Source: Thalassobaculaceae bacterium
GTDB taxonomy: Bacteria > Pseudomonadota > Alphaproteobacteria > Thalassobaculales > Thalassobaculaceae
Assembly (NCBI GenBank): GCA_965228875.1
Contig: OZ245843.1
Location: 1,904,616-1,968,615 of the forward strand
Length of the DNA stretch: 64,000 bases
Direction of reading: 5' to 3'
Shown: positions 14,276 to 46,148 of the stretch, piece after piece
Position numbering within the stretch: position 1 is the stretch's first letter
Layout: each line of letters opens with the position of its first letter
Notes under the pieces: model-generated
What the model saw: only the letters and a program-made list of their open reading frames with translations
Database searches by the model: none
Told to the model about the DNA's origin: nothing
Position numbers and translations under genes: made by a program

Positions 14276-14356
14276 CGTCGAGAGGAGAACCGGCGACACT
14301 GTGCCTGGTGGAGAACGGAGGGACGGCGCTTAAGCGGGGCGGCCTGGAGCGGGTGT

Positions 14357-16894: not shown

Positions 16895-17057
16895 GACCGC
16901 CCCGGTATACCGCCCCGACATGCCGCCCCATGCGATCGACCGCCTTGGGCCGGGCGGACCATCCAGGCAGCGCCTTGCCACCCTGGCGGCGCCTTGAAAG
17001 TGGCGGCCTAAGAGAGGAAACTCGGCGTACGCGGCCGAAAACCGGCATGGGATCTGG

Positions 17058-17693: not shown

Positions 17694-17694
17694 C

Positions 17695-24984: not shown

Positions 24985-25491
24985 ATGCCGACGCCAGCTT
25001 ATATGACCATCGAGGGTGCCAATCAGGGTGACATCTCCTCCGGTGCGATGTCTGCCGACTCCGTCGGTACGCTCTCCGTCTCCAGCCAGGAGAACACGAT
25101 CCAGATCCAGCAGTTCGAGCTGGGCGTGACGATCCCGACCGATCCGCAGAGCGGCCAGCCCACCGGCCGACGCATGCATCACGGCGCGACGATCGTGAAG
25201 TACATGGACAAGGCCTCGCCGATGCTGCTGCAGGCGATCGCGACCGGCGAGCAGCTGACCAAGGTGGCGATCTCCTTCTACCGCACCTCGACCACCGGTT
25301 CGCAGGAGAAGTACTACACGGTCGAGCTCGAGGAGGCGACGCTGGTCGGCCTGCGGCCGTATTTCCAGAATGCTCTCGATCCTGACAGCTCGAATTACGC
25401 GCACATGGAAGAGCTGAAGGTCACCTACAAGCGGATCACGGTGACACACGAGGTCGCCGGCACGTCGGGTAGCGACAGCTGGGACGACTGA
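24985..25491 (+). CDS. hcp: T6SS tube protein Hcp
   Basis: MPTPAYMTIEG..QG.I, PTDPQSGQPTGRRMH, DKASPML, HMEEL.V.YKRI. Confidence 0.97.
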   Translation: MPTPAYMTIEGANQGDISSGAMSADSVGTLSVSSQENTIQIQQFELGVTIPTDPQSGQPTGRRMHHGATIVKYMDKASPMLLQAIATGEQLTKVAISFYRTSTTGSQEKYYTVELEEATLVGLRPYFQNALDPDSSNYAHMEELKVTYKRITVTHEVAGTSGSDSWDD

Positions 25492-28444: not shown

Positions 28445-29479
28445 CTACCGCGCGCCTACGAAGGCGACGGTATTGTCCGGCCGATCCGGCCGTCCGAGCC
28501 ATGCTGTATGTCCAAGCGCCTTGTCATCTCCGAGTGTCCAGGCGGGCGCCGCGCTCGGACGGATCGTCAGCATCACATCGTAGATCAGGTGGTCGCGCAG
28601 GACCCGCCGGATCAGGTGGTCGAGCGCCCGGCGCCACGGAGCCCCGGGCAGGAGCGCGACGAACCCGTCGAGATCCAGCGGGCCGAACCAGACACGGAAC
28701 TTGCCGCAGATATCCGGCACGTGGGCGCCCAGTACCGCATCCCGGGACAGCGCCGAGTTGTTCGCCCCCAGCTGCCAGCGCTGCTCCTCGACGATCGTCG
28801 CCCGGCGCGGCACCCACTCCTCCACCGTCGCCCGCACTCCCGGCAGTGCGTCCTCGAGAATACGCTCCAGCACGCTGGCGGAGTGGCAGAACAGCCCGAC
28901 AGAGGCCGCGTTGGCGAGAACGCTGCGCTTGGACAACACCGCCCTGTCATCCATGCCGGCGCCGTCGACCAGGTCGAGCGCACCGGCAACGCTGCCGACG
29001 AGGCGGGTGATCTCGTCCCGTCCATCCTCACGGAAAACCTGGGCATGGCGGTATCGACGCCAGATCCGGTAGATCAGACCGATCATCCGGTTGTTGAACA
29101 CGTCGAGGAACCCGCGCAGGGCGTCGCTGTCGACCGCGTTGGACACGATCGCCTCGTTCACCGTCGGAGGCAGTGGCGAACTGGGTCCGTAGAGGCCGAG
29201 AAATGTGGTCTCGATCTCGACGCGGACAGTCTCCTCTCCGTCCGGTCCGACCGTCGTCCGGCGCCGGACGGCGGAGATGTCGCTCGGCGCGAAAGCCATG
29301 CTGGCATCGGCGGTGAAGCGGACGACCTCGCGCGACGCCGGACCGTTCTCGCCGACCGAAACCGGCGCGCGTAACGCGCGCTCGACCAGCGACACGGCCT
29401 GGAAAAACGCGTACCGATGGCCGGTCCGCTCCAGCGCGTCGGTCAGAGGCCCGGTCGTGTCCCGGTTCGTATCGGCCAC
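28445..29479 (-). CDS. tssG: T6SS baseplate subunit TssG
   Basis: YAFFQAV.LVE, FLGLYGPSSPLP, FLDVFNNR; overlaps the end of tssF as is typical. Confidence 0.93.
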   Translation of the reverse strand: MADTNRDTTGPLTDALERTGHRYAFFQAVSLVERALRAPVSVGENGPASREVVRFTADASMAFAPSDISAVRRRTTVGPDGEETVRVEIETTFLGLYGPSSPLPPTVNEAIVSNAVDSDALRGFLDVFNNRMIGLIYRIWRRYRHAQVFREDGRDEITRLVGSVAGALDLVDGAGMDDRAVLSKRSVLANAASVGLFCHSASVLERILEDALPGVRATVEEWVPRRATIVEEQRWQLGANNSALSRDAVLGAHVPDICGKFRVWFGPLDLDGFVALLPGAPWRRALDHLIRRVLRDHLIYDVMLTIRPSAAPAWTLGDDKALGHTAWLGRPDRPDNTVAFVGAR

Positions 29480-31191
29480 TGGTACACCACGTTGCGTTCA
29501 CTGCCGCGCACCCGAAACCGGTGGACGGCGTTGACGTTGGCAAAGAGATCGAGGAACCGGTTCAGCACCGTGCCGAACAGGAACACCTCGCCTTCGCCGC
29601 CGAATTTGCTTTCCTCGAGCGTCACCTGGATGTCGGTGCCGCGCACCGGGTACCCCCGGAGGATCCAGTCCATCGACTTGGCCGTTACCGCCTCGATCCC
29701 ATCCACCATCAGGTCGAGGCGACGGCGTTCCTGGGCGTCGAAATGGGCACGGAAATGATAGGTCGAGATCAGCACGCGGATCGCATCCACGGTGAGCAGC
29801 GACCCGAAATTCAATGCCATGTTGGAGATCAGCGGCCACAGAAGGCCGACGCCGATCGGCGGCGGAATCTGAGGCGAGATCGCCTGGATGTTGCGGAATC
29901 GAACATAACTCGGCGTGCTGCTGGTCGGCTGGTCCAGGTGGCCGGCGACGATGTGCTCGGCCAGTCGACCGTTCGTCGCGGTGACGGCAAGGGAGACGGT
30001 CTCGGCCTCGGGGACCACTTCGCCGCCATCGTCGCGGACGAACGACACGTAGGTGTCGACGCTGTGGCCGGCGACCGCCGGACGGCGGCGCACCGAATAG
30101 TAGACCGCCTTCTCGTTGCCGAGCAGCGACCGGAACGCCTCGAACGGATGATAGGCGATCCGGGCACCCCGGCCCTGGACCCAGCCGGAGGCCTGGCGAA
30201 CCGAATGGACGTCGAGCGGCCCTCCGGTGGCGTCACGCGCGGTGAGCCGATACTCGGTCTTGCGCTGGTCGACCGTGATCGGGTCCGCGTCCGCCTCGAA
30301 CAGGTTCACCGCCGGGACGCAGTTGAGCCGGATGCTGTCGTTGTTCAGGCCGGACGCAAGGCCGAACGGCTGATCCAGTTCGAACACGATGGTGAGCGCC
30401 GTGCCAGTGAACGCTGCGGTCGGTCCGAGACCGTCGAGCTCGACGAACATGAACTTGTCGGGAAAGGCGAAGTATTCCTGCAGCAACGGAAACCCCGGTG
30501 CCACGCCGGAGGGAACCGGCACGATCGACTGATCCGGCTCCAGGCCGACCGGGCGCAGCCGGCCGCCCGGCAGCGTGAACGAGTGGCCCGCCCCGTCCTT
30601 GACGACGACCCTCCGACAGTGTCGCAGCAGCGACAGATACGCCAGCCGCGCGGCCGACGAGCCCCGCTCCCCGAGGAGGTAGAACTGCAGGCGCTCGAGC
30701 CGGAGGTCCGACGGCATGACGTCCGCGTACAGGCGGATGCCGAGCTCGATGTAGCCCGACCGCGACGTGTTCTCGACCCGTACCGCTTCGACCCTGGCCG
30801 CCACCAGCGACAGATCGAAGCCAGTGCGGAACCGGCAACTGGTCCCGTCGACCGGGCGCGACGCGATCTCCACGCCGGCCGGAACGGACCGCTCCTCGGC
30901 GCCGGCCTCCGCCAGCGGTTCGAACTGGACCACGGTCATCGCCGGAATGGGGCGCAGGAAATGCGGCCACATGAGCTGGAGCAGCGAGTGGGTCAGTTCC
31001 GGCAACTCGTCGTCGAGCTTCTGCCGCAGACGCCCGGAGAGGAACGCAAATCCCTCCAGGAGCCGCTCCACGTCCGGGTCGGAACTTTCCCGCGACAGGA
31101 ACGGTGCCAGGTTGGGATTCTCGGCGGCGAACTCCGCACCGAGCTCGCGCAGGTAGGCGAGTTCGTCCTGGTAGTACTTGTTGAAGCTCAT
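29443..31191 (-). CDS. tssF: T6SS baseplate subunit TssF
   Basis: YYQDELAYLRELG.EFA, DPDVERLLEGFAFL, LLQEYFAFPDKF. Confidence 0.96.
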   Translation of the reverse strand: MSFNKYYQDELAYLRELGAEFAAENPNLAPFLSRESSDPDVERLLEGFAFLSGRLRQKLDDELPELTHSLLQLMWPHFLRPIPAMTVVQFEPLAEAGAEERSVPAGVEIASRPVDGTSCRFRTGFDLSLVAARVEAVRVENTSRSGYIELGIRLYADVMPSDLRLERLQFYLLGERGSSAARLAYLSLLRHCRRVVVKDGAGHSFTLPGGRLRPVGLEPDQSIVPVPSGVAPGFPLLQEYFAFPDKFMFVELDGLGPTAAFTGTALTIVFELDQPFGLASGLNNDSIRLNCVPAVNLFEADADPITVDQRKTEYRLTARDATGGPLDVHSVRQASGWVQGRGARIAYHPFEAFRSLLGNEKAVYYSVRRRPAVAGHSVDTYVSFVRDDGGEVVPEAETVSLAVTATNGRLAEHIVAGHLDQPTSSTPSYVRFRNIQAISPQIPPPIGVGLLWPLISNMALNFGSLLTVDAIRVLISTYHFRAHFDAQERRRLDLMVDGIEAVTAKSMDWILRGYPVRGTDIQVTLEESKFGGEGEVFLFGTVLNRFLDLFANVNAVHRFRVRGSERNVVYQWPIRTGTRPGL

Positions 31192-31595
31192 CGCACGCTC
31201 ACCGAGCCGTCGGCACCGAGCACCGTCTCGAACGCGACCCGCTCCTGACCGTCCGGCATCGTCAGTTCGGCGGAGATATTGAAGAACAGGCTGAGCGGGC
31301 GATCCGGGTCGGGCACATGACGGACGCTGACCTTCTTCAGGCGCGGCTCGAACGACTCGATCTGGTTCTTTATGGCCCTGGAGATCGCAGGCACGGCGGC
31401 CGGGAACTGGATCACCAGATCATTGAAATCGGGCAGACCGTAATCCGGGCGCGTGGGAACCGCGCCCGCACGGACGTTGAAGATCTCCCGCAGGTGCGCG
31501 AGCACGGACTCCATTTGCCTCGCGGTATCGAACCCCGTGGTGCTCCGGATCGGACCCGGGTCGAGGAGCCTTTGAAACAGCGTCTGCTCAAGCAT
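31188..31595 (-). CDS. tssE: T6SS baseplate subunit TssE (gp25-like)
   Basis: PDYGLPDF, I..FEPRL. Confidence 0.93.
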   Translation of the reverse strand: MLEQTLFQRLLDPGPIRSTTGFDTARQMESVLAHLREIFNVRAGAVPTRPDYGLPDFNDLVIQFPAAVPAISRAIKNQIESFEPRLKKVSVRHVPDPDRPLSLFFNISAELTMPDGQERVAFETVLGADGSVSVR

Positions 31596-31648: not shown

Positions 31649-33136
31649 TCAGGACTTGTCCAGCTTGCCGCGCAGCGACAGCGTGAAATCCGCTCCCATG
31701 TACTTGAAGTGCGGCTGCACAGCCATGTTGACGCGATACCAGCCGGGCTCGCCTTCGACGTCCTCGACGTTGATCTCGGCCTTGCGAAGCGGACGGCGAC
31801 TGCGCACGTCGGCCGACGGGTTCTCCTGGTCGGACACGTACTGCCGGATCCAGTTGTTGAGCTCCGTCTGCAGCTCTCCCCGGTTCTTCCAGCTGCCGAT
31901 GTTCTCGCGCTGCAGCACCTTCACGTAGTGCGCCAGGCGGTTGATGATAAACATGTACGGAAGCTGCGTGCCGAGCCTGTAGTTGGTTTCGGCATCCTTG
32001 CCTTCCGGCGTGTTGCCGAAATACTTCGGCTTCTGCACCGAATTGGCCGAGAAGAACGCGGCGTTGTCGCTGCCCTTGCGCAGGGTGAGCGCGATGAAGC
32101 CCTGTTCCGCCATCTCGTACTCGCGGCGGTCGGAGATCATGACATCGGTCGGCGACTTGGTCTCGATCTGCCCCATCGACTCGAACTGGTGCATGGTCAT
32201 GTCCTCGACCGCACCGCCTCCCTGCGGGCCGATGATATTCGGAGCCCACCGGTACTTGGCGAAGCTTTCGGACAACCGTGTCGCCAGTGCGAACGCCGTA
32301 TTGCCCCAGAGGTAGTTGTCGGTCTTCCCGTCGGCCTCTTCATTGTAATTGAAGGCCTTAACCGGGTTTGATTCCTGATTGTACGGCGACCGCAGCATGA
32401 AGCGTGGCGCCGTCAGGCCGAAATAGCGGGCATCCTCGGAATCCCGGAACGAGTTCCACTTCGCGTATTGCGGGCCTTCGAAGATCGATTGCAGATCCTT
32501 GAGCCCCGCCAGTTGCTCCCATTTCTCGATGCCGAACATCTTGGGCGCGGCAGCGGCGAGGAACGGCGCATGGGCCATGGAGCCGACCGCCGACACATCG
32601 CGCATCAGCTGGATGTCCTTCGCCCCGGCATCGAAATCGTAATTCCCGATCATCACGCCGACGGGCTCACCGCCGAACTGGCCGTACTCCTCGACGTAGA
32701 TGTGCTTGTAGAGGCCGGACTTGACGATCTCAGGAGCGTCCTCGAAATCCTCCATCAGATCCTGCTTGGAGACGTTGAGGATCTCGACCTTGATGTTCTG
32801 ACGGAAATCCGTCTTGTCGACCATGTACTTCAGGCTGCGCCAGGAGGACTCCATCTTCTGGACGTCCTCGTGATGCATGATCTCGTCGAGTTGGGCACTA
32901 AGCCGCTTGTCGATCTCGCCGACCATCTGGTCGACGATCGACGCCTGGATCTTCTCCCCGGCGCGCTGCGACTTCACGAGCTCGGCGATGAATGCCTGCA
33001 CGCCCTGGCGGGCGACATCGTATCCGTCGTCCGCCGGCGCCATCTTGGTTTCGTTCATGATCTGATCGAGGAGCGAGAGTTCCTCGGTCTGAGCTTCAGC
33101 GCCCTGAGCGCCGGATTCCGTCTGCGTATCGGCCAC
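31649..33136 (-). CDS. tssC: T6SS sheath large subunit TssC
   Basis: EEYGQFGGEP, YLWGN, GPQGGG, RLAHYVKVLQRENIGSW. Confidence 0.97.
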   Translation of the reverse strand: MADTQTESGAQGAEAQTEELSLLDQIMNETKMAPADDGYDVARQGVQAFIAELVKSQRAGEKIQASIVDQMVGEIDKRLSAQLDEIMHHEDVQKMESSWRSLKYMVDKTDFRQNIKVEILNVSKQDLMEDFEDAPEIVKSGLYKHIYVEEYGQFGGEPVGVMIGNYDFDAGAKDIQLMRDVSAVGSMAHAPFLAAAAPKMFGIEKWEQLAGLKDLQSIFEGPQYAKWNSFRDSEDARYFGLTAPRFMLRSPYNQESNPVKAFNYNEEADGKTDNYLWGNTAFALATRLSESFAKYRWAPNIIGPQGGGAVEDMTMHQFESMGQIETKSPTDVMISDRREYEMAEQGFIALTLRKGSDNAAFFSANSVQKPKYFGNTPEGKDAETNYRLGTQLPYMFIINRLAHYVKVLQRENIGSWKNRGELQTELNNWIRQYVSDQENPSADVRSRRPLRKAEINVEDVEGEPGWYRVNMAVQPHFKYMGADFTLSLRGKLDKS

Positions 33137-33160: not shown

Positions 33161-33658
33161 CTACTCGCTTGCGTCCTTGTCCAGGCCGAGCTCGGCCAAC
33201 AGCTTGGACTTCGCCCCCTCGTCATCCAGGATCCCCTGGATCGCCTTGCGGAAAGCCGGAACGTTCCCCAGGGGTCCCTTGAGGGCCATGAGCGCCTGCC
33301 GCAGTTCGAGCAGCTTGCGCAGTTCCGGCACCTGATTGACGACTTGCTCCGGCTCGAAGTCCTTCAGCGTGTCGAACTTGAGGCTTACCGGCATCACGGC
33401 GTCCTCGTCGTCGGACATCGTGTCCTTGACGTTGAGATCCAGCGACAGTTTCTGCGCCTTCATCACGTCGTTGAAGCTGTCCTTGTCGACCCTGATCCGC
33501 TCACGCTCCTCAAGCGGCGTGTCGTCGGGACGCATGGTGAAGTCGCCGAGAACGACCTGCTTGAACGGCAGTTCGATCTCCTCCTTCGCGTCTCCCGTCG
33601 CAGGGCGGTACCGGATATTGACCCGCTCCTTCGGCGCGACCGAACCTTCACTTGCCAT
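33161..33658 (-). CDS. tssB: T6SS sheath small subunit TssB
   Basis: SVAPKERVNI, ELPFK..VLGDF, DFEPEQVV.QVPEL. Confidence 0.97.
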   Translation of the reverse strand: MASEGSVAPKERVNIRYRPATGDAKEEIELPFKQVVLGDFTMRPDDTPLEERERIRVDKDSFNDVMKAQKLSLDLNVKDTMSDDEDAVMPVSLKFDTLKDFEPEQVVNQVPELRKLLELRQALMALKGPLGNVPAFRKAIQGILDDEGAKSKLLAELGLDKDASE

Positions 33659-33708: not shown

Positions 33709-35433
33709 TCAACCCCTCATGATCCCCAACGCCGCCACCATATTCAAGCGGTACAACCTTGCCGCCAATTCCGCCGTTAACCGATTCACCTGATCCTCGA
33801 CAAGAATATCCTCCGCCCCGCCGCGTTTCAGGCTCTGGAGCCGCAGCGTCGTCAGCCGTTCCGCCAGCGCCGGCTCCCAGGTATCGAGATCGACCGCCCG
33901 GTGCCGCTCCTCCAGCGCCGTCAGCATCTGATAGGCTGGACCGGCCAAGCCCATCGACAGGCACAGGTCCGCCTTCGCCAGATCCCAGAGCAGGCCGGCG
34001 CGGCCGCCGCCGGCGCCGCGCGCGCCTCTAGTGAGCAGTTCCGCCGCCTCGTCCTGCTTGCCGTTGGCGGCCAGCCCGCGCGCCTCGGACAGGGCCGAGC
34101 CCACCCCGCCATCGTCCGCCGCGTCGCCGACATCGCCGCCGCCACCGCTCTTGAGCACGGTCTCCTTCAGCCACAGCCGCGTCTGATCGTCCGCGAACGG
34201 CCTACCGCCCTGGAATTTGAACTCGAGAAGCCGCGGGAACCGTCCGAGGAAGGCCGCCACCTCGGCGACGACCGTCGACCGCGCTGCCTCCTGTCCCATC
34301 GCGCCCAGGGCGTTGGCGACATGGCGGTGCGGATCCAGCCAGAACATCCGGTCCTCGGTCGCCGCCTCGCAGGCCGCGACCGCCTCCGCGTGATTGTCGG
34401 CCGCCACCAGGGCATCGATCGCCGACGCGACGCCACCGTTGGGCGCCGGCAATTCCGTCACGCCGGCCTTGTCGGGCGGCAATGCGACAACCTGCAGCCA
34501 GATGGCCGACCGGTGCACGCCGTAGGCGCGGGGATCGGCCGGATCCGCGGCCCGCAGGCTGCGCGCGAAACCCAGCATCGTCGATCGGAACGCGCTGATC
34601 GCCCGGTCGAGTTCGGGGCCGGGAGAGGACGGCAACTGCGGCGGCGCACCGACGGCAGCCGGCGCCACCGAAGGGGAAGACGGCTGCGGGGCGGCGGGCC
34701 CGGCCGCCTGCGCCGGCGGTTCTGCCACCGCTGCAGGAGCCGCGGCAGGCGGAACAACCTCCTGAACCACAGCCTCGGCGGTCGGTGGAGCGTCGGCTTC
34801 CGTCTCCGTCGGCTCTTCCGGAGCCGGATCGGTCGCGGCAGCCGCTTCCTCCGCCTGACGGCGCTGATCGACGATATATTGGGCATCCTGCCGCTTGGCC
34901 CGCAACGGACGAAGCAGGTCGCCGAGATTGGCCTGGGTTTTCTCTGCCTTCTCGTCCAGAAGACGGTCGACATCCTCGGCCATCGTCAGGACCAGCAGCA
35001 CATCCTCGGCGTTGCCGGCATCGACCTCCAGGTCGTCCAACTGCGGGCCGAAACGCTCCGCAAGCCAGTCTACGGCCCCCACCCGCGCGCGTTCGCGCCG
35101 GGGTGGCGGGAAGCCGGAGTCCCAGAAAGTCTCAACCATCCTCGCGATCACGCCCAGACCGACGGCAAGACCGCGGAGCCCCTCTTCCCGGCCCAAGGCA
35201 TACGCGAAATAGGCCGCCACCAGATAGTCTTTCGTGCGGTCCCGCAGCAGGCCCTGGCTGAGATCGGTGACCTTGCGCCAGTCGACGGCGGTCGGCCCGT
35301 CGACGTCCATTTTCGAGACTTCCGCCGACAGGGTTTCGTACGCGGCATCTTCCCGCGCGTTCTCACCGGCCGGCTCGTCTCCGGGGACCGGATCGCTGCC
35401 GAGGCTCAGCCTGGGATCGTCGAGGTCGGCCAT
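33709..35433 (-). CDS. tssA: T6SS TssA (ImpA_N plus VasJ-like, long form)
   Basis: PVPGDEPAG, DW..V, TKDYLVAAY, FWLDPHR, FADDQTRLW; ATG at 35433. Confidence 0.9.
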   Translation of the reverse strand: MADLDDPRLSLGSDPVPGDEPAGENAREDAAYETLSAEVSKMDVDGPTAVDWRKVTDLSQGLLRDRTKDYLVAAYFAYALGREEGLRGLAVGLGVIARMVETFWDSGFPPPRRERARVGAVDWLAERFGPQLDDLEVDAGNAEDVLLVLTMAEDVDRLLDEKAEKTQANLGDLLRPLRAKRQDAQYIVDQRRQAEEAAAATDPAPEEPTETEADAPPTAEAVVQEVVPPAAAPAAVAEPPAQAAGPAAPQPSSPSVAPAAVGAPPQLPSSPGPELDRAISAFRSTMLGFARSLRAADPADPRAYGVHRSAIWLQVVALPPDKAGVTELPAPNGGVASAIDALVAADNHAEAVAACEAATEDRMFWLDPHRHVANALGAMGQEAARSTVVAEVAAFLGRFPRLLEFKFQGGRPFADDQTRLWLKETVLKSGGGGDVGDAADDGGVGSALSEARGLAANGKQDEAAELLTRGARGAGGGRAGLLWDLAKADLCLSMGLAGPAYQMLTALEERHRAVDLDTWEPALAERLTTLRLQSLKRGGAEDILVEDQVNRLTAELAARLYRLNMVAALGIMRG

Positions 35434-35513
35434 CTGTCTAATCGGTTTCCGTGTAGAGCGGCGCTCGCAGGCCCGCCTGAAAGGCGAACCGTCGGGAGCA
35501 TCGCCGACCTGTC

Positions 35514-35541
35514 GGTTTGAGGCAATGCCATTGTCCAAACC
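35514..35541. promoter_or_regulatory. Imperfect palindrome in the divergent T6SS promoter region
   Basis: GGTTTG-A-GGCAATG-C-CATTGTC-CAAACC. Confidence 0.4.
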
Positions 35542-35592: not shown

Positions 35593-37374
35593 ATGTCAGA
35601 CGATCCCAATCTGGTGAGCGCACAGTTCGGCAGCGGGCGGACATCCGCAAGGCCGTTGCGTCGCGTGCCGTTTCGCATTGTCGTTCTCGGCGATTTCGGG
35701 TTGTCCTCGGAACGCCTGCACGGGTTCGACGAACAGGAGCCGGACGAGGCGCTGGCCGCCGCCGCGCCCCACCTCGATCTTGCGGTTGCCGATCGCCTCA
35801 CGGGCGCCGACCGGCCGCTCGGTCTGACCCTGGCATTTCGCGCGCTGCGCGATTTCACACCCTCCCGGCTCATCGAGGCGGTTCCGGATCTGTCCCGCGC
35901 GTTGGCCGTCCGCGATCGGCTCCGCAAGGGGATGCCGGCGGAGGAGGCCTTCGCCGATATGCCGGCGCTCGCCGATCACGGTGCGCCGCCGGACAAGACG
36001 ACGCCCTCCCCGGAGGCGCCGGCTCCGGCGCCGCCACCCTCGGAACCGTCGGTGGCGCCACGTCCGGCAGCGGACGACGAAGACCCCCTCGACAGACTGT
36101 TCGACATGGTGGACAGCGGAACCGCCGGCCCGCCTCCCGCAGCGCCGTCGAACGCGACCGACAACGCGGCCAGTCGGGCGGTGTCCGCCTTCATCGGCTC
36201 GATGGGTGGCCGCAGGTCGGCGACAAGTCCCGGAGAGACCGCCGCCACGGCCGTGGCACGGGTCGAACGGCGGATCGCCGATCAGGTGGCCGACATTCTC
36301 GACACGCCGGAGTTCCGTTCGCTGGAGACCGCATGGCAGGGCCTGCGGTTCCTGCTGCGCCGGTGCGACCGCCGCGCACAGTGCTTCGTCCATGCGATCA
36401 GTGCGCCCCGCGACGAGGCGGTCGCGGCCGCCCGCGCCCTGCTGGTCGACGGCGCCGACCGACAGCCCGCCGGCATCGGTCTGATCGTTGCAGCCTACGA
36501 CTACGGCTCCGGCCCCGGGGAGATCGCCCGGCTTCAGGAACTCGCCGAGTTGGCGGAGGAGATCCAGGTTCCTGCCGTTGCCAGCAGCACACCCGATTTT
36601 CTCCATGGCGATACCGATCTCGCCAGACGGCGCGATCCCGAGACGTTGCTTCAGGATGCCGCCTATGGGCCGTGGAACAGTCTTCGCGCGAAGCCCGCCG
36701 CGCGCTGGCTGGGGGTTACGGTCAACCGCTTCCGACTACGCGACGGGCACGACCTCGGCGACGCCCGGCGGTTTGCGTTCGAGAATGGGACGGTTGCCGG
36801 AACGCCGCTGGAGGCGGGCGGCGCCTGGCTGGTCGCGGCGGTTGCCGCCGAAAGCGCCGCCGAGAGCGGATGGCCGAGCGACATGACCGGTGCGGACCGG
36901 GCCATCGACGGCCTGCCGCTGTACGGCGATCCCGAGACCGACAGCAACCTGTTCGCCGTCTCCCAGCCCCTGCGCCCGGATGCCGCCGCCAGCCTGGCGA
37001 ATGCGGGGCTTATCGCCCTTGTCGGCCAGGCGAACCGAGACATTGCCCGGGTGGTCAGGGTTGCGAGCGTCCACAGCCGTCGGGCCGATCCGAGCGGCGA
37101 TCTGCCACGCGAAGGTACTTTCGACTACCAGCTTCTGGTGTCGCGGCTGATTCGACAGATCGAAGGCAATGCGGATCTGATCTTCGCCACCGGAACGCCG
37201 GAGGGGATTCGCGACGCGATGGACGCCTTCCTGCGCAGTCTGCTCGGCGCCAGCGCACAGATCCGGGTCACGATTGACACCGACGACCGGGGCGAACGGG
37301 TCCTCACGCTCGACATCGTCACCGGGCATAGCCTGCTCGACGGTGCTTCGGTCCACCTGGATCTGCCGGTCTGA
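35593..37374 (+). CDS. Fused TssB-TssC sheath paralogue
   Basis: N-terminal PFRIVVLGDF...DFTPSRLIEAVPDL (TssB-like), then QVADILDTPEFRSLETAWQGLRFL and WNSLRAKPAARWLGVTVNRFRLR (TssC-like). Confidence 0.85.
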   Translation: MSDDPNLVSAQFGSGRTSARPLRRVPFRIVVLGDFGLSSERLHGFDEQEPDEALAAAAPHLDLAVADRLTGADRPLGLTLAFRALRDFTPSRLIEAVPDLSRALAVRDRLRKGMPAEEAFADMPALADHGAPPDKTTPSPEAPAPAPPPSEPSVAPRPAADDEDPLDRLFDMVDSGTAGPPPAAPSNATDNAASRAVSAFIGSMGGRRSATSPGETAATAVARVERRIADQVADILDTPEFRSLETAWQGLRFLLRRCDRRAQCFVHAISAPRDEAVAAARALLVDGADRQPAGIGLIVAAYDYGSGPGEIARLQELAELAEEIQVPAVASSTPDFLHGDTDLARRRDPETLLQDAAYGPWNSLRAKPAARWLGVTVNRFRLRDGHDLGDARRFAFENGTVAGTPLEAGGAWLVAAVAAESAAESGWPSDMTGADRAIDGLPLYGDPETDSNLFAVSQPLRPDAAASLANAGLIALVGQANRDIARVVRVASVHSRRADPSGDLPREGTFDYQLLVSRLIRQIEGNADLIFATGTPEGIRDAMDAFLRSLLGASAQIRVTIDTDDRGERVLTLDIVTGHSLLDGASVHLDLPV

Positions 37375-37498
37375 TGGCGGCCGACCGCCGGCGTCGACAC
37401 CGACCCATCCGGCCCTTGACGTTCGGTCCCGAAACCCGTTCCAAATGGCACCGGGGAGAAGGCAGGGGCGTGACCACGTCGGGCCCTCGGAGGAGCGA

Positions 37499-38891
37499 AT
37501 GCGCCTAGTGCTGGAGGTCACGAGTTTCCAGAAGGCCCTGATGGGCGGCGGAAGCCGGCACGAATTCGACGAGCGGGGCGGACTGATCGGCCGCGGAAGA
37601 CGCAGCGACTGGGTCCTGCCGGACCCGGACCGGTATGTCTCGGGCACCCATGCCGAGATCTCCCACGATGGAGAGCGGTTCTATATCATTGATGTCAGCA
37701 CCAACGGTCTGTTCCTGAACGACGCGAGCGTACCGCTGGGACGCGGCGGGCGTTGGCCGGTGTCGGACGGCGACCGCATGGCGCTCGGCGATTTCGAGAT
37801 TGTCGCCCGCATCGAAGAAGACGCCGCCGACGCGCGCGTCGCGGACACTCCGCTTCCGGTATCCCGGCCAACGGCACCGCCCCCACCGACATCGGCCCAG
37901 GTCTCGGCCGTGGATATCGACAGTCTGCTTGATGCCGAGCCGGCACCGCCACCTCCGCCGCCGAAACCTCTACCGGCAGAACTGCCGCCCGAATTCGCTG
38001 CAGCGCCGGAACCGCGACCAACGGCTTCCGTCCCTCCTACGCCCCCCCCCACCAACGCCGGATCCGGTTTCCGGACCGCCGCCGTCGGCCGTCGTCCCGC
38101 CGCCACCGCCGCGGCTGACCCCGCGCCCATCGACCGGCCACGATGGCGCGCCGGCCCTCCCACCAGTCCTCGACGCGGAGATCGAGCCGGCGACCGGGCC
38201 ACGGGAACATCCGGCGGTTGGCGAACCGGACACGGCCGCATCCCCCTCGCCGGTCCCGGAGGCTGTCCCGGAGGCGGACGACGCTCCATCCGCGCCGCGG
38301 GAACCGGAACGGGGGGCGGCCGACGGCCCCGCGTCCGAGCCGGCCGCCGTTGCCGACCATGCGGCGGCCATCGCCGAGATGGATCTCGACGACCTGATCG
38401 GTCCCTTGGCGGGCACAGCCGAAATTCCCTCCGCCTCTGAAAGGCCGGCATCCGTGATATCGGCGATCCCCCCGCCGATCCCACCGCCGCCGCCCGTCCT
38501 GCCGAAAGCCGGGCCGGCGCTGCCCCCGGTTCCCGGTTCAGTCGTCGCGCCGGCACCGGAAACCCCGTCGGCCCCGCCCGTTCCCGACGATATCGACGAC
38601 CTGCTCGGCGAACCGTTCGACGCTCCGCCCGACGTCGGCGCCGTCGAGGCGACAGCGGAGGCAGCCACCGAGCCCCCATCCGCAACAACGGCGTCGGGAC
38701 GTCTGGCGCCGGGACGTCTGGCGCTGGGGCGGCTGGCACCGGACCGGATAGCGGCCGGCGCCGACCTGCCCGAGGGATTGGACGAAACCGAACGCAAGGC
38801 CAGGCTTTGGGATGAATTCACCCGCGTGTATAATGACTTGCGGGAGGATGACCTGGATCCCGACACAACGACAGGTAGGCGCGAGCAATGA
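37499..38891 (+). pseudogene. tagH: T6SS FHA protein TagH/Fha, frameshifted, most plausibly at the C9 run 38042-38050
   Basis: FHA domain (IGRG..SDWVLPDPDRYVSGTHA, DVSTNG) in the frame of 37499; Pro-rich region and KARLWDEF end in the +1 frame, whose stop overlaps the tssJ ATG. Confidence 0.8.
38697..38741 (+). repeat. 15-bp tandem repeat, 3 copies (GRLAP/GRLAL/GRLAP)
   Basis: GGACGTCTGGCGCCG GGACGTCTGGCGCTG GGGCGGCTGGCACCG. Confidence 0.65.
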
Positions 38892-39415
38892 CCGTTTCGG
38901 ATCGTGCGGCGACGTACGCGGCGACACTCGGCCGGCTTCGGTCGTTGCTGTTCGTCGTCGTTTCGACGGTCGTGCTCGCCGCATGCTCCGGAAGTTCCGC
39001 ACCGGACCCGACATCGGCCGGCCTGACCGTGCAGGCGACGGCGCGAATCAACCCGAACTCCCAGGGCCAGCCGTCGCCGGTCGTACTTCGGATCTACGAG
39101 CTCAAGGCAACGTCGGTATTCGACACGGCCGAGTTCTCGCAGCTCTTCTACAACGACCAGGCGACGCTCGGCGGCGACATGCTGAACCGCCGGGAGCTGG
39201 AACTGGCCCCCGGTCAGACCGTCGAGCGCACCGACACGCTGAGTTCGGAAACCAGGTTCCTGGGGTTCGTCGCCGGTTATCGCGACCTGTCCAATGCCAC
39301 GTGGCGGGCCCGGGTTCCGGTCGAGTCCGAGACCGACAATGCGATCCTGGTCACCGTCGACGCTCTGTCGATCAACAGCAAGATCATCGAGAGTTCGTGG
39401 TGGAACATTTTCTGA
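38888..39415 (+). CDS. tssJ: T6SS lipoprotein TssJ
   Basis: Lipobox LAAC; INPN..GQPSPVVLRIYELK; VAGYRD..WR. Confidence 0.93.
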   Translation: MTVSDRAATYAATLGRLRSLLFVVVSTVVLAACSGSSAPDPTSAGLTVQATARINPNSQGQPSPVVLRIYELKATSVFDTAEFSQLFYNDQATLGGDMLNRRELELAPGQTVERTDTLSSETRFLGFVAGYRDLSNATWRARVPVESETDNAILVTVDALSINSKIIESSWWNIF

Positions 39416-39478: not shown

Positions 39479-40810
39479 ATGACCAGTACAAAGCCGCTGT
39501 GGTTCGAAGGCATGTTCATGCGGCCGCAGCACTTCCAGCAGAACGACCGGCACTGGGCGGCCCGCCTGGAGGACCGCCTCGCCGGTCTGACGGCCTACGG
39601 CTGGGGACTTCGCGCCATCGCCCTGGACGAGAACATGTTCTCGCTCGGAAAACTGAGCGTGACCGCGGTCTCGGCCGTCCTGCCCGACGGAACGCCGATA
39701 GACGCCCCCAAGGGCGCCGATCTTCCGCCCATGCGCGAGGCGGGCCGCGACAGCGCAGGGCGAACCATTTTGCTGGCGCTCCCGGCGATACGCGGCGACG
39801 AGCCCGACGTCGCCCTCGAACAGCTTCGTTCCACCGTGGCGCGCTTCAATGTCGCCACCGAAGCGGTCCGGGATTCGACCGCGGCGGACAGCGAACCGAT
39901 CGACATGCGCGTCGGCCGCCCGGCACTGCACCTTGTGATCGAAGGCGAGGAACTGGACGACATGATCGCCCTTCCGATCGCCCGCATTCGCGCGATCACG
40001 CCGAGCGGCGGAATCGAGCTCGACGGCGACTTCCTGCCACCATCCCTGACCTGCACGGCCGACCCGGGGTTCGGGGGCTTCCTGAGCGAGATCGAGGCCC
40101 TGCTGAGACGGCGCGGCGAAACCCTCGCCGCGCAGGTCGACCCCTCCCGTGCGGAGGGACTGTCCGACCTCCTGGATTTCCTGCTGCTGCAGACCGTGAA
40201 CCGGAACGAACCGCTGTTCCGCCACCTGGCGCGGGTCGAGCACCTGCATCCCGAGCGGGCCTTCGCCGCCGCTCTGTCCCTCGCCGGGGAACTGGCGACC
40301 TTCATGCCGGACCGCCGGCCGGAGACCTTTCCCGACTACGACCACGGTCGCCCGGCGACCTGTTTTCCGCCGCTGCTCGACACCATCCGTCAGGCGCTCA
40401 GCGTGGTCTCCGAGCGGCCGGCCGTCCAACTGCCGATCGAGGAGCGGAAGTACGGAATCCGGATCTCCATGATCGGCGACCGCACGCTGCTGGACACCGC
40501 GCGGTTCGTCCTGCTGGTGCGCGCCGATGTCCCGACCGACCAACTGATCCGCACGATGCCGAACCAGATCAAGATCGGCCCCGTCGAAGAGATCCGCAAC
40601 CTGGTCAGCGTCCAGTTACCGGGTATCGCGCTCAAGGCGCTTCCTGTCGCGCCGCGGGCGATCCCCTACTACAGCGGCGCCGCATACTTCGAGCTCGACT
40701 CGCGATCGGAGTTCTGGCCCAAGATGGCCACGTCGGTGGCGTTCGCGTTCCATGTCGCGGGCGAGTATCCTGGGCTCAGGTTCGAGTTCTGGGCCATCAG
40801 GGAAGCCTGA
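39479..40810 (+). CDS. tssK: T6SS baseplate subunit TssK
   Basis: WFEGMFMRPQHFQQ, HPERAF, YDH, KIGPVE, EFWAIR. Confidence 0.96.
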   Translation: MTSTKPLWFEGMFMRPQHFQQNDRHWAARLEDRLAGLTAYGWGLRAIALDENMFSLGKLSVTAVSAVLPDGTPIDAPKGADLPPMREAGRDSAGRTILLALPAIRGDEPDVALEQLRSTVARFNVATEAVRDSTAADSEPIDMRVGRPALHLVIEGEELDDMIALPIARIRAITPSGGIELDGDFLPPSLTCTADPGFGGFLSEIEALLRRRGETLAAQVDPSRAEGLSDLLDFLLLQTVNRNEPLFRHLARVEHLHPERAFAAALSLAGELATFMPDRRPETFPDYDHGRPATCFPPLLDTIRQALSVVSERPAVQLPIEERKYGIRISMIGDRTLLDTARFVLLVRADVPTDQLIRTMPNQIKIGPVEEIRNLVSVQLPGIALKALPVAPRAIPYYSGAAYFELDSRSEFWPKMATSVAFAFHVAGEYPGLRFEFWAIREA

Positions 40811-40813
40811 CCC

Positions 40814-41731
40814 GTGCGGCAACCGAGCGGCAGTCCACCGGCGATCGACGACGAGCCGACCGCGATCCATATGCGATCGGGAGGCGTGACGACGCCTCTT
40901 GTCGGAGCGGCGGCAGCACCTCTGGGTCAGGCAAGGCCGACGGCGGCGGCAGCCGCGCGGACGACACCGAGCCCCTCGTCATCGGAGGCAGGCGCCGAGT
41001 TGCGCGCCTATCAGGCGCCGCTGGCGGGCTTCGGAAATCCCTATCTGGCCGCCGCCGCGCCGCTGCTCGACCTGATCGTTGAGATCCACGCCACCCAGGC
41101 GCACCCGGACGTCGCCGGCCTGCGCGCCCAGATCACCGAGCAGGTCCGCGGCTTCGAACGCCGCGCCCTCGAAGCCGGGGCGGTTCCCGACTACGTCCAG
41201 GCGGCCCGATACGCGCTGTGCAGTGCGCTCGACGAAGCCGTGCTGACCACCGACTGGGGGGCCGAGAGTGCCTGGAGCCAGCAGAGCCTGCTCAGTCAGT
41301 TCCACAACGACGTCTGGGGCGGCGAGAAGGTCTTCGAGATGCTCGACGAGCTTCGCCGAACACCGCGCGGCGCGACCGACGTTGTGGAACTGATCGCCTT
41401 CCTGATCGGGCTCGGCTTCGAGGGCCGATACCGGGTCATGTCCGGCGGCGGGGCGCAGCTTGAGGATCTCAGGCGCGAGGTGTTCCGTCAGATCCGCATC
41501 GAGCGCACGCAACGCCCGACCGACCTGTCCAACGGAAACCATGGGCGGGTGGCGGGCCGCGGCCTTCGCCGCTACGTGCCGGTCTGGGTGGTGGCGGCGG
41601 CCTGCGCCCTGATCCTCACGCTGAGCTTCTTCTACTTCGAGGAGAAGTTTCACACCAAGCTCCAGCCCCTGCTTGGCCGGCTCGACGCCCTCATCCATGA
41701 CCCGATGAATGCGACGGGGGGCGGCGGCTGA
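40814..41731 (+). CDS. tssL: T6SS TssL/DotU, without an OmpA domain
   Basis: ARYALCSALDEAVL, LLSQFHNDVWGGEKVF, LGFEGRY; C-terminal TM. Confidence 0.93.
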   Translation: MRQPSGSPPAIDDEPTAIHMRSGGVTTPLVGAAAAPLGQARPTAAAAARTTPSPSSSEAGAELRAYQAPLAGFGNPYLAAAAPLLDLIVEIHATQAHPDVAGLRAQITEQVRGFERRALEAGAVPDYVQAARYALCSALDEAVLTTDWGAESAWSQQSLLSQFHNDVWGGEKVFEMLDELRRTPRGATDVVELIAFLIGLGFEGRYRVMSGGGAQLEDLRREVFRQIRIERTQRPTDLSNGNHGRVAGRGLRRYVPVWVVAAACALILTLSFFYFEEKFHTKLQPLLGRLDALIHDPMNATGGGG

Positions 41732-41733
41732 CG

Positions 41734-44700
41734 ATGCGCGTCCTGCTCTCGATCCTCTCCTTCCTCGGCTCGCGGATGTTCCTGTCCTTCCTGGGCGTGG
41801 TCGCGATCGCACTGCTGGTCTGGTACCTGGGACCGCGACTTGCCGTTGGCGGCTCCGCTCCGCTCGAAGGGGAGTCGGCGCGCATTGCCGTCATCGCCGG
41901 CATCGTGCTGCTCTGGTTGTTCAGCGAGGCCTTCAGGCGCTGGCGGTTGCGCTGGCTGAACCGCCGGATGATCGCCAGCCTGGCCGAGAGCCGGACCCTC
42001 ACCACACTCACCGACAGCCGGAACGACGAGGAAGCGGAGATTATCCGCCAGCGCTTCGAGCACGCGCTGGAGGTGCTGCAGGCGCGCACGGTCAGCGGAC
42101 GCAGCGGCGGCCGCTATCTGTACGACCTCCCCTGGTACGTCCTGATCGGCCCCCCCGGTTCCGGCAAGACCACGGTGTTGAGCAATTCGGGTCTGGAGTT
42201 CCCGCTGGCGAACGAACTCGGCGTCGAGATGATCGAGGGGTTCGGCGGGACACGGACATGCGACTGGTGGTTCACGGAGGATGCCGTCTTCATCGACACC
42301 GCCGGCCGGTACACGACCCAGAACATCAATCCGGAATCCGACCGGGCGGCCTGGCAGACCTTCCTTGAGACCCTGAAGGAGCATCGGGCCCGACGCCCGG
42401 TGAACGGGATCATCGTCTCGGTCGGGCTGGACCATCTGCTAGCCGGTGACGCGGACGGCACCAACCCGGCGGACGCGATCAAGGCCCGGATCCAGGAACT
42501 GATGAGCACGTTCCGTACCCGACTGCCGATCTACGTGTTCATCAACAAGTGCGACCTGATCGCCGGCTTCAGCGAATTCTTCGACGACCTGGGCGGCGAG
42601 GATCGCGAGCAGGTCTTCGGCATCACGCTCGCCCCCACGAAGGCCGGGAGTTCGACGCGCGCGCTCCAGGAGTTCTCCGAGGAGTACGACGCGCTGGTGC
42701 AGCGCCTCGCCAACCGACTCGACATGCGGCTGGACGAGGAGCGGCGCCCCGAGGATCGCCGCGCGCTGTTCGCCTTTCCACAGCAGATGGCCGGCCTGAA
42801 ACGCCGCTTCGACCGGTTCCTGTCGGATGTCTTCCGCCCGAGCCGATATTCCACCCAGCCGCTGCTGCGCGGCGTCTACTTCACCAGCGGCATGCAGGAA
42901 GGCGTCCCGGTCGACGGATTGATGGCCGCCCATGCCGGCGCCTACGGCCTGAACCCGGCTGTGCCGGCCCCGCAGGAAACCGGAGAGCAAAGCTACTTCA
43001 TAACCCGTATTCTGCGCGACGTCGTCTTTCCCGAGCAGCATCTGGCGGGGACCGACAGGCAGTTGGAGCGGCGGCTCGCCGTCTATCACCTCACCGCCTA
43101 TGCCCTGCTGCTGCTGATCACCGCCGGTTTCATCGGCGGCTGGTGGTACTCGGTGCAGCGCGGCGATCCGATGATCGCGGCGGAGAATGCCCGCCTCGAC
43201 CGGTTCGAGGAGAAGCGCGAGGCGTACAAGCTGTCGCCGAACATCGAGACCGCGACCGAGGCGATGCTGGAGCTGGAGCCCGACACCAACCAGGGGACGA
43301 TCCCCGATCTGGTGCTCGACGTGATGGAGAACTTCGGTCTGCTCGCACAGGTGCATGTGGAGCCGCGGATCAACGACGCCTTCGCCAGCGCCGCCAAGGC
43401 CATTCTGGTTTCGGCCATGACGCGCGACATCGCCGGCAATCTGTCCGCCGCGGTGCGTCGCAACGACGACCCGGAGACGATCCGCCGCCTTCTGACGCTC
43501 TACCTCGGGATGAGCGACCCGGCGATGTACGACCGGAACCGGCTGGAAAACTGGGCGGCGCAGACGACCAAACAACTCTATCCGCTCGAGCCGCTGAAAC
43601 AGAGCACGGCCAACGCCGCCTTCGGGCAAACGTTCTCCACCTGGCCCGGCCCGCAGAGGATCAACCAGAACCTGGTGCAGCAGGCCCGCGGCGTCCTGTT
43701 CTCGATGCCGCCGGCCAGCCAGGTCTACTCCCAACTCAAGGGGATCGCGTTCCAGTCCGGGGTTCCGCCGGTGTCGATGCAGACCCTTCTCGGCATCCGC
43801 GACAGCCAGCTCTTCGTCTACCGCCGCGCCCAGGGCGAACGTGCACCGACCATCCCCAACCTCTTCACCGCCGACGGTTTCTACAACCTGTTCATCAAGC
43901 GGACGCCGGCGCTGATCTCGGCCGCCGCCCAGGATGATCCACTGTCCGGGCGCACCGGCGGCGAGGCCGAGGACGACACGCGGCAGGTGATCGCCCAGGT
44001 CACCAAGGACTACACGATCGACTACATCGCGACCTGGAACGAGTTCCTCGACGGGATTCACCTGCGCCCGTTCCGCAACGTCCAGGACGCGAATAACGTG
44101 CTGGAGACCCTGTCCGGCAACGGCTCGCCGCTGACGACCCTCGTCAACGCGGTCGCCAACAACACGATCCTGCCGCTCTCCCGAATGAGCGATCCGAGCC
44201 AGCTCCCGACCCAGGCCGCCGGCTCCAGCGGTTCCGGCGGGTTCGCCGGTCTCGGAAGCCTGACCGGTGGTTCGGCCGCCGCCGGGGTCGCCGCCGGGGC
44301 CGCCAACGCCTCCGCATCGGCGCAGAACACGGCGGCACAGGAAGCCCTGTCGCAGCTTGGACCGTTCTCGCGCTGGCCGGGAACGGCGATCTCCGAGCCG
44401 TTCCAGCCCTTGCAGGATCTCGTCGTCTCGCGGAACAACCGTCAGCCAGGGATCAATGCCGTCCACCAGGCGATCGTCGACCTCTACAGCGCCGTCAACC
44501 TGATCGCCACGGCCCCGGATGTCGGCAAGGCCGCCTTCGACGAGGTGAAGAGCCGGATCGACGATCCACGCAACAGCGTCATCACGGCGGCTTCGACCGC
44601 CGCGGTATCGCAACCTAGCCCGGTTCAGGACGTGCTGAGCGACGTCGCCCGCGAGACCTGGAGCGTGCTGCTGGCCGAGGCGCAGACCTATCTGAACGCC

Positions 44701-45413: not shown

Positions 45414-46148
45414 GTGACCGGGTTTCTGGGCAAACTGCCGACGGTCGGCGATTTCGTGTCCCGCGGTGTGCCGACCGTGCTCGAGACCACGTGGATGGAC
45501 CTGACGGACAGCGCCTTCGCCCTTGGCGCACGGCGCGGCGGCGCCGACTGGTACGAGACATGCCAGGACGCCGCACCACTCTGCTTCGCCCTGGCTCCCG
45601 GCGCCTTGGGCACCGCCGCATGGATAGGCCTCCTGCGGCCGAGCCTGGACAGTTTCGGACGCAGCTACCCCTTCACCGTCCTGGCCCAGGTGCCGGAGGG
45701 TGTGCCGCTCCTCGCGGTGCCGACGCGCCTTGCCCGCTGGTTCGCCAGGGTCGACATCGCCGTGCTGTCGGCGATGGAAGGGTCCCTGACGGTGGACCGC
45801 CTGGGCGCCGTGCTTGCCGAGATCGGCGCGACGCCGCCGCAACCGGGGCCACCGTCACAGCCCGTTCGGCTTCAATTCGGCCGCGAATCAGTTCAGGGTT
45901 GGCGCGGTCCGGTCGGACTCGGCGACGATGCCGGCACGATCGCGTGGTACGAGATGCTGTTGTCGGAAATCCTGTGCGAGGAGGCGACGCCGACGCTGTG
46001 GTGGCAGTTGGCGGCAGGGGGCGCGTCGACGCCGAGCGCGCTGCTTCGGACCATGCCGGACGCATCCGCGTTCCGGTCTTTCCTCGCCGGCGAGTGGCCT
46101 CGGAACGACAGCCCGGCCGCAACCGACGCGGCGGAGGGACCGGCGTGA
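45414..46148 (+). CDS. tagF: T6SS post-translational repressor TagF
   Basis: GFLGKLPTVGDFV, PSLDSFGRSYPF. Confidence 0.9.
   Translation: MTGFLGKLPTVGDFVSRGVPTVLETTWMDLTDSAFALGARRGGADWYETCQDAAPLCFALAPGALGTAAWIGLLRPSLDSFGRSYPFTVLAQVPEGVPLLAVPTRLARWFARVDIAVLSAMEGSLTVDRLGAVLAEIGATPPQPGPPSQPVRLQFGRESVQGWRGPVGLGDDAGTIAWYEMLLSEILCEEATPTLWWQLAAGGASTPSALLRTMPDASAFRSFLAGEWPRNDSPAATDAAEGPA

Follow-up and report, generated by a model that had tools for sequence, protein, structure and literature searches.

What is a single-chain protein that resembles both type VI secretion system (T6SS) sheath subunits doing beside an intact, separately encoded TssB-TssC pair? This question is raised by a 64,000-nucleotide stretch of the genome of a Thalassobaculaceae bacterium (assembly GCA_965228875.1, contig OZ245843.1, positions 1,904,616 to 1,968,615; the whole stretch is referred to as the window). 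Within its T6SS cluster, canonical TssC (31649..33136; VipB 435 bits, VipB_2 155 bits, N-terminal LLDQIM motif) and canonical TssB (33161..33658; VipA 185 bits) are encoded on the minus strand, and an unbroken open reading frame (ORF) of 593 amino acids plus stop (P0001, 35593..37374) is found on the plus strand. This fused ORF is a diverged single-chain copy of both T6SS sheath proteins, and it belongs to a widespread, previously uncharacterised family of fused paralogues of about 600 amino acids that accompany a normal sheath. With respect to function, we tentatively favour a sub-stoichiometric adaptor at the sheath end that is linked to Fha and ClpV, and not a bulk sheath protein or a second sheath.

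A search with VipA and VipB profiles, suggested together with the original prediction for this locus, gave Pfam matches above the cut-offs for both. T6SS_VipA (PF05591) was matched with 46.7 bits against a cut-off of 24, residues 24-111 of the ORF corresponding to profile positions 25-121 of 155, and the C-terminal third of the profile (122-155) remained unmatched. VipB (PF05943) was matched in two stretches with 99.8 bits against a cut-off of 27, the best of them aligning residues 295-493 with profile positions 91-300 of 301. For VipB_2 (PF18945, gpW/gp25-like) no Pfam match was obtained in the ORF even at E<=1; the homologous C-terminal helix-plus-strand domain is nevertheless still visible by profile alignment and in the structure model described below. 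The NCBIfam equivalogs for the small (TIGR03358) and the large subunit (TIGR03355) scored 40.7 and 95.9 bits, respectively, far below their cut-offs of 97.25 and 271.5 bits. In direct comparison by BLASTP, the ORF is 32% identical to the cluster's own TssB over 95 amino acids (E 3e-11) and 21% identical to its TssC over 340 amino acids (E 6e-16). These alignments reproduce both N-terminal matches to TssB that had been read by eye, as well as the QVADIL.../WNSLRAK... matches within the claimed alignment with nearly all of TssC. The further pairing of DPLDRLFD with LSLLDQIM and that of the terminal strands did not appear in BLASTP and were recovered in the profile alignment of 146 family members. 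This family profile aligns with residues 3-469 of the 473 residues of solved VipB (E 2e-104) and with residues 17-154 of the 164 residues of solved TssB (E 3.5e-27). Pfam, profile alignment and gene map therefore bear out the original description of a strongly diverged single-chain paralogue beside the canonical split pair.

Three parts can be distinguished along the ORF. The TssB/VipA-like module (residues 1-128, 35593..35976), delimited by the Pfam VipA profile, BLASTP and the model, consists of a poorly conserved N-terminal stretch followed by a strand at residues 27-33 and helices at residues 85-122. The Pro-rich linker that had been noted at first sight spans residues 129-214 (35977..36234), is also rich in Thr and Ser and is predicted to be disordered, its predicted local distance difference test (pLDDT) values being mostly below 60; it contains a conserved short amphipathic helix with an LDRLF-type motif (residues 164-174, 36082..36114) that aligns with the start of VipB. 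The TssC/VipB-like body (residues 215-593, 36235..37371), supported by Pfam, BLASTP, profile alignment and model, ends in a diverged domain of one helix plus three strands.

The structure was modelled with AlphaFold2 from the 146-sequence alignment, which gave a pLDDT of 88.2 and a predicted template modelling (TM) score of 0.85 and superseded an earlier, poor model from a 9-sequence alignment (pLDDT 51, residues 287-510 unmodelled). Residues 27-128 (TssB-like) and 215-593 (TssC-like) are modelled with confidence, and the low-confidence linker contains two short helices (166-170 and 192-203). When the model was compared with the PDB by Foldseek, ranks 1-9 were all taken by T6SS sheath chains (E 2.5e-18 to 2.9e-13), with 5urw_1B as the best match (E 2.5e-18, TM 0.73 on the target), and the sheaths of pyocins, phages and extracellular contractile injection systems (eCIS) ranked after them. 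As judged from the model, the fused ORF has a contractile sheath fold, since its predicted structure matches solved sheath protomers.

A frameshift or a mis-joining of tssB and tssC as the source of the ORF was ruled out, because homologues share the same single frame and the canonical genes exist separately. A decaying or functionless tssB-tssC duplicate is very improbable in our view. The ORF is the most diverged gene of the cluster, as such a duplicate might be; however, frames are intact in all family loci that are complete in sequence (contig ends truncate L030 and L045), most of the best 150 matches are of full length, locus L077 retains the gene at this position with 29% identity, the model is confident, and W, G and R columns are conserved across the family. 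Homologues, whose absence or decay had been named as evidence that would speak against the original prediction, thus turned out to be many, full length and free of stop codons.

The extent of the family was assessed by an exhaustive HMMER search with the fused ORF, in which 2226 representatives passed E<=1e-3, 914 of them E<=1e-10 and 112 E<=1e-30; a word-based homologue search, which found 12 proteins only, had understated it. Among the best 150 matches, 140 are chains of 540-690 amino acids, and most align in one stretch from about residue 10-50 to about residue 590. The weakest of these 150 scored 113.7 bits as compared to 73.6 bits for the cluster's own TssC with the same query, and the best 150 therefore represent the paralogue family and not ordinary TssC. 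Members are named 'type VI secretion system contractile sheath large subunit', ImpC or hypothetical protein in the databases and come, by record titles, from at least six phyla (Pseudomonadota, Myxococcota, Planctomycetota, Sumerlaeia/BRC1, Eisenbacteria and KSB1). Those from Pseudomonadota include Thalassobaculaceae (61% identity, same gene order), Stellaceae and Acidiferrobacterales, to which NCBI names add Hyphomicrobiales. Among 41 genomes (the own genome, G000, and 40 relatives) full-length matches are rare: apart from G000, G004 has one (63%) and G012 has two (38% and 36%). When 401 genomes were sampled evenly across the class, 79 gave a sheath match; a high-scoring, unbroken family member occurred in G000 only, and G064 and G104 contain divergent members. 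A tblastn search of 72,556 plasmid records, some of which presumably carry rhizobial imp clusters, yielded no family member and 18 weak partial matches, with tssC annotated under one of them. Finally, a search for related loci returned 58, of which 20 contain a family member (21 with the truncated L045) and the others are ordinary sheath loci.

Family members occur in the company of a canonical sheath. Canonical TssC is also present in 18 of the 20 genomes checked. It is encoded within the same locus in the window and in L014, L077, L026 and L044, and in G012 it adjoins one of the two family copies. For family loci without nearby T6SS core genes, whole genomes were searched: TssF was found in all five of these genomes and canonical VipB in four of them (411-446 bits, frame of about 500 amino acids). 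In ten further genomes, a VipB_2-bearing frame of 492-515 amino acids was detected in eight. No canonical sheath gene was found in the metagenome bins G044 and G434, whose completeness is not known. During this survey, loci with two adjacent fused paralogues (about 600 and about 450-650 amino acids), both without VipB_2, were observed in Eisenbacteria (L018, 9479-12789; L021, 9452-13732; L034, 9662-13357) and Planctomycetota (L058, 8430-11740). In the relatives of these that were checked (G432, G433 and G435), a canonical VipB_2-bearing TssC is encoded elsewhere, which brings the number of sheath-like genes per genome to three.

Fusion of TssB to TssC is not peculiar to this family. Outside the window, the own genome contains two further T6SS clusters, each with one fused TssB-TssC gene. 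The one in L072 (11231-13162, plus strand; contig 1 near 4.436 Mb) encodes 643 amino acids, and the one in L074 (13827-16289, minus strand; near 4.534 Mb) up to 820 amino acids including a long Ala/Lys/Glu-rich spacer. Both match VipA, VipB (294 and 361 bits, respectively) and VipB_2. In both clusters hcp and tssF/G come next, and no tssB or tssC was detected nearby as a separate gene. Together with the genes in L038 and L052, these fused main sheaths reach 294-361 bits for VipB and 115-132 bits for VipB_2 and fall inside the canonical clade of the TssC tree. Like the window protein, they are single chains with TssB followed by TssC. Unlike the window protein, they carry VipB_2, belong to the canonical clade and have no further sheath gene detected beside them in the cluster; they represent independent fusions of ordinary sheath genes and stand outside the window protein's family. 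Unbroken TssB-TssC frames of 650-690 amino acids were also seen in many small alphaproteobacterial genomes of 0.6-2 Mb (G155, G374, G152, G225, G387, G039, G260, G420, G119, G358 and G228), and in some lineages the main sheath may usually be fused. Single-chain T6SS sheaths thus exist, given the fused frames of the own genome's two other clusters and of the small alphaproteobacterial genomes. The premise of the original prediction, namely that T6SS sheaths are split and that single chains are confined to phages, pyocins and eCIS, is too strong.

Could the window protein then be a second bulk sheath protein that co-polymerises through the TssBC sheath or forms a conditional alternative sheath? 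Its full-length protomer fold would allow this, and a fused TssB-TssC is, as described above, the only sheath gene detected in each of the own genome's other two clusters. However, several lines of evidence render such a role quite improbable. In a FastTree phylogeny of the TssC part, calculated for 132 sequences (all sheath-like locus frames and every third of 145 family representatives), the canonical TssC clade of 53 tips (support 0.889) includes no family member, the fused ORF lies outside it, and the mean terminal branch is 0.24 within the clade versus 0.60 outside. The VipB_2 signature was matched by Pfam in none of 20 family members versus two of two canonical TssC proteins and four of four fused main sheaths. 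Conserved canonical blocks are lost as well: on a shared profile divided into blocks of 15 columns, canonical proteins are more conserved than the family in all blocks but one, and several of their strongly conserved blocks, among them a GQFGG-type block, a helix of the C-terminal domain and the C-terminal strand motif, are not kept. The central EaaWRGLxFL-type block is the most conserved one in both the family and canonical TssC and is common to both. As judged by sequence, the protein keeps the body of a sheath protomer without the canonical lattice and domain-3 signatures. Furthermore, its gene is grouped with those for membrane and baseplate parts of low abundance and not with hcp and tssBC, and a canonical sheath gene was found besides in 18 of 20 genomes.

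The rate of divergence also argues against a bulk role, orthologues of the fused ORF being 29-61% identical and those of the main sheath 74-94%. When the window was compared with L014, L077 and L044 in turn, the fused ORF showed the lowest identity of all cluster genes every time. Between the window and L014, it is 61% for the fused ORF, 94% for TssC and 95% for TssB, and the other proteins range in between (ClpV 91%, TssE 87%, TssF and TssK 84% each, TssM 78%, TssG and TssJ 77% each, TssL 73%, phosphatase 64%). In L077, which has the same gene order, the values are 29% for the fused ORF, 74% for TssC, 79% for TssB and 37-52% for other cluster genes. In L044, they are 35% for the fused ORF and 74% for TssC, TssB not being comparable as the locus starts within tssC. 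By these identities, the fused ORF evolves much faster than the main sheath and is the fastest-evolving gene of the cluster. A low-copy, non-bulk role is favoured because of this fast evolution, the loss of canonical lattice motifs and the position in the operon.

The one block that departs from the general pattern of conservation lies in the linker. Columns 166-180 of the shared profile (residues 162-176) reach 0.52 in the family versus 0.46 in canonical TssC, and this helix block is the only one that is more conserved in the family. In the family profile alignment, the linker helix falls on the extreme N-terminus of VipB. Among the 146 members, position 166 is L, V or I in 136, position 167 is D in 101, positions 169 (L or I) and 170 (L, F, M or I) are conserved in 144 each, position 172 is M or L in 133 and position 173 is V in 129. 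The linker segments on either side of the helix are 19-47 and 6-50 residues long, with a median Pro fraction of 0.18. According to a published study, TssC's N-terminal helix with its LLDEII motif docks in a groove of the ClpV N-domain in V. cholerae-type systems, and another class of systems has charged groove residues and TagJ (PMC4239648). The cluster in the window looks like the direct-binding, LLDEII-type and TagJ-less class, because its own TssC starts with LLDQIM, no TagJ was seen among the window ORFs scanned by profile, and ClpV has Leu at position 6 by positional reading. In the alignment, the linker helix takes the place of the helix by which TssC binds ClpV, and it is a putative ClpV ligand; the family helix has Arg at the position of the Glu in LLDEII. 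A complex prediction for the ClpV N-domain (1-170) and residues 140-262 of the fused ORF (score 0.25, mark 0.32) speaks neither for nor against binding.

The same features might mean that the protein acts outside the lattice, as a soluble or Fha-bound factor that recruits, parks or titrates ClpV by its permanently exposed, TssC-type helix and thereby tunes recycling or keeps ClpV near assembly sites. Such a factor would account for the linker helix being the sole region with higher conservation than in canonical TssC, for the position of this helix within a low-pLDDT linker and for its occurrence in a cluster of the TagJ-less class whose TssC has an LLDEII-type motif. It would also fit the unmatched C-terminal part of the TssB profile; in canonical sheaths, this part of TssB packs with TssC's N-terminal helix. 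Display of a peptide alone, however, would not need the whole sheath body of about 480 ordered residues that is kept with a confident model and conserved core motifs, and the helix motif departs from LLDEII at the Glu position. We therefore regard a purely ClpV-directed factor as rather unlikely.

The gene neighbourhood was considered next to the protein itself. The gene map agrees with the original placement of the gene at the head of the fha-tssJKLM operon instead of the sheath operon: the plus-strand run that it heads comprises Fha, TssJ (38888-39415), TssK (39479-40810), TssL (40814-41731), TssM (41734-45387), a PP2C phosphatase (45491-46909) and a Ser/Thr kinase (46906-48753), the last two belonging to the threonine phosphorylation pathway. 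The gene for the FHA-domain protein (Fha/TagH; 37274..38440, plus strand) lies directly against the fused ORF's stop codon or overlaps it; its match to L014 begins at residue 37, and its true start is probably near 37380. No terminator-like site was found between the two genes. For the related loci, neighbouring genes were called by heuristic ORF picking filtered by GC at third codon positions (GC3), by which some genes are missed or over-extended, and since the family loci are mutually related, neighbour enrichment is not a statistical test. With these provisos, the gene directly downstream of the family member encodes an FHA protein in the window, L014, L077, L008, L013 and L019; in L054, L060 and L064 the FHA gene is found two genes upstream. 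PP2C and kinase genes follow the family member in L016, L024 and L044, and kinases are encoded within about 6 kb in L017, L033, L054 and L060. In tblastn searches with the window proteins as queries, at least one of Fha, PppA and PpkA was found in 11 of 22 family loci versus 7 of 38 other sheath loci, one of these seven being L045 with its truncated family member. First position in an operon with Fha and TssJKLM is shared by the window, L014 and L077.

Some unassigned genes were noted in these neighbourhoods. In three Myxococcota loci, a conserved gene of 363-398 amino acids without Pfam match sits between fha and the family member (L054, 8772-9878; L060, 8297-9385; L064, 1719-2912). In two Sumerlaeia/BRC1 loci (L016, 1544-12363; L024, 321-11367), the family member is followed by an uncharacterised protein of 739-825 amino acids, a PP2C phosphatase and a two-kinase-domain protein of about 1,660 amino acids, and this run lies apart from the T6SS core genes of the same genome.

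On its other side, the fused ORF is divergent from tssA (ImpA_N and VasJ by Pfam; 33709..35538, minus strand), for which the ATG at 35432 is the likelier start by sequence, so that an upstream region of about 160 bp is probably shared by both genes. The same divergent pairing with tssA is found in L014, L077, L008 and L013, and tssA is nearby in L026. This arrangement would be in line with a distal-end cap, terminator or length regulator acting with TssA, a single ring of the paralogue then terminating or stabilising the sheath as it grows. The retention of strands together with altered lattice motifs would suit strand exchange on one face only. On the other hand, many family loci have no tssA nearby, the N- and C-terminal strand regions are both retained with no one-sided loss evident, and the Fha, kinase and phosphatase genes with which the family is associated suggest a part in initiation rather than termination. 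A role at the distal end is thus unlikely in our assessment.

An adaptor at the sheath end remains the reading that we favour, if tentatively, because the protein is conserved, folded and fast-evolving, accompanies a canonical sheath, is encoded together with initiation parts and has a private motif resembling the ClpV helix. By strand exchange of the sheath type, the fused protein would attach to an end of the TssBC sheath, most probably the one proximal to the baseplate. During initiation, Fha and the threonine phosphorylation pathway would be its partners, and its linker helix would stay permanently accessible to ClpV. Low copy number, docking at the sheath end and contact with Fha or ClpV are all features that we infer. 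A link to Fha is plausible since Fha acts as an assembly scaffold that recruits T6SS parts, as described in a paper that does not deal with the fused protein (PMC12607579).

Several observations weigh against this adaptor. The tree has no outgroup; placing the root among family members makes them paraphyletic with respect to canonical TssC, and only a split between the two can be claimed. Judged from sequence, the family could accordingly be an ancestral form instead of a derived helper. A redundant or weakly used gene would also evolve fast. In 10 of 24 family loci, the stretch of about 6 kb around the family member revealed no FHA, kinase or phosphatase gene, and the family members of L015, L020 and L025 lie away from any T6SS gene. 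The synteny of the family loci is heterogeneous, with heuristic neighbour counts from loci that are not independent. The Arg in place of Glu may not fit the ClpV groove. Finally, the second, shorter fused paralogue beside the family member in Eisenbacteria and Planctomycetota is not predicted by an adaptor.

How does the window protein relate to sheath proteins described before? With canonical TssB and TssC (PDB 5urw, 5mxn, 3j9g) it shares end-to-end homology and the same fold, but it differs by its single chain, the disordered linker, the missing match to the TssB C-terminus, the absence of VipB_2 and its faster evolution. In eCIS such as those with Afp2/3/4 and Pvc2/3/4, one machine has several sheath paralogues, one of which is confined to the baseplate-proximal ring. 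The fold similarity of the window protein to eCIS sheaths (6rao_E, 9qgp, 6j0n) is distant (TM 0.3-0.56), and the comparison is an analogy with another family.

Extra sheath paralogues of the T6SS are known already, namely TssCL and TssC40, and the window protein's family is much wider and uncharacterised. According to an in-silico report of 2022, TssCL is a fused protein encoded beside split tssB and tssC in T6SS1 clusters of roseobacters, which likewise contradicts the split-only premise; it has about 1,684 amino acids with two VipA domains, one VipB domain and a very long spacer, was found only in roseobacters and a few Alphaproteobacteria, and its function is given as unknown (PMC9515649). 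Coexistence with separate tssB and tssC in one cluster is common to TssCL and the window protein; the latter, however, has one VipA-like and one VipB-like region within 593 amino acids, heads the fha operon and has relatives in at least six phyla. A frame fitting the published TssCL was observed in L076 of G122 (13941-19109, plus strand): its 1723 amino acids comprise an N-terminal VipA, a repetitive spacer of about 900 amino acids and a VipA-like plus VipB-like module, and the cluster also has separate TssB, TssC, TssF, TssG and ClpV. This frame matches positions 10-497 of the family profile with 185 bits, lacks VipB_2 and matches VipA in two stretches; in the tree, its module groups with L078 next to the canonical clade and away from the window protein. 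TssC40 (Atu4340)/ImpD of Agrobacterium/Rhizobium is reported as a second TssC homologue that is not redundant with TssC41 for Hcp secretion (PMC3702570). Like the window protein, it is an additional paralogue of sheath type whose cluster also encodes Fha, PpkA and PppA; unlike it, TssC40 adjoins tssB-tssC41 in the sheath operon (PMC3702570). Unfused second TssC genes in our set (L065, L067, L070) fall inside the canonical clade. No use of the term TssCL was found in the literature beyond PMC9515649, and no TssB-TssC fusions or VipAB-like proteins were found there by name; broader searching led to TssCL and TssC40 only. TssW was also considered as a comparable protein and discarded, as it is described in PMC12607579 as an outer-membrane protein and is not sheath-like.

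The remainder of the cluster consists of hcp (24985..25491, plus strand) and a minus-strand series encoding a DUF2169-pentapeptide protein, ClpV (25624-28380), TssG (28445-29479), TssF (29443-31191), TssE (31188-31595), TssC, TssB and TssA. We take this layout to be of the P. aeruginosa H1-T6SS type, with one extra gene heading the fha operon. The DUF2169 protein (21466-24723, minus strand) has 1085 amino acids with many pentapeptide repeats and adjoins hcp; similar genes also lie near family members in L019, L029 and L034. The fha ORF (388 amino acids from a TTG at 37274) contains an FHA domain only, without a Pfam match to T6SS_FHA_C. Its 3' half is overlapped by a 363-amino-acid ORF in another frame (37800-38891), which spans the gap to tssJ and has no Pfam match. 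About 230 residues ahead of the phosphatase domain of the PP2C protein are also without Pfam match; L044 has a separate TagF gene where the window phosphatase has this N-terminal extension, and a TagF-like part is possible.

Overall, fused TssB-TssC genes occur in two ways, either as main sheaths, with two in the own genome, or as a separate accessory family. Current annotation names both kinds 'sheath large subunit', and the common assumption is hereby corrected. The accessory family may preserve the ancestral single-chain form that gave rise to split TssB and TssC. A more far-reaching proposal, which we consider possible though doubtful, is that the family constitutes an ancient and distinct class of T6SS components in at least six phyla, a non-bulk subunit that would nucleate or seat the first sheath ring at the baseplate under the control of Fha and phosphorylation and would expose a ClpV-docking helix constitutively. 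If this is true, many T6SSs would have a specialised initiator sheath protein, as eCIS do. How the T6SS sheath starts on the baseplate and how the Fha phosphorylation signal leads to polymerisation are both still unclear, and the fused protein is a concrete candidate for the link between them.

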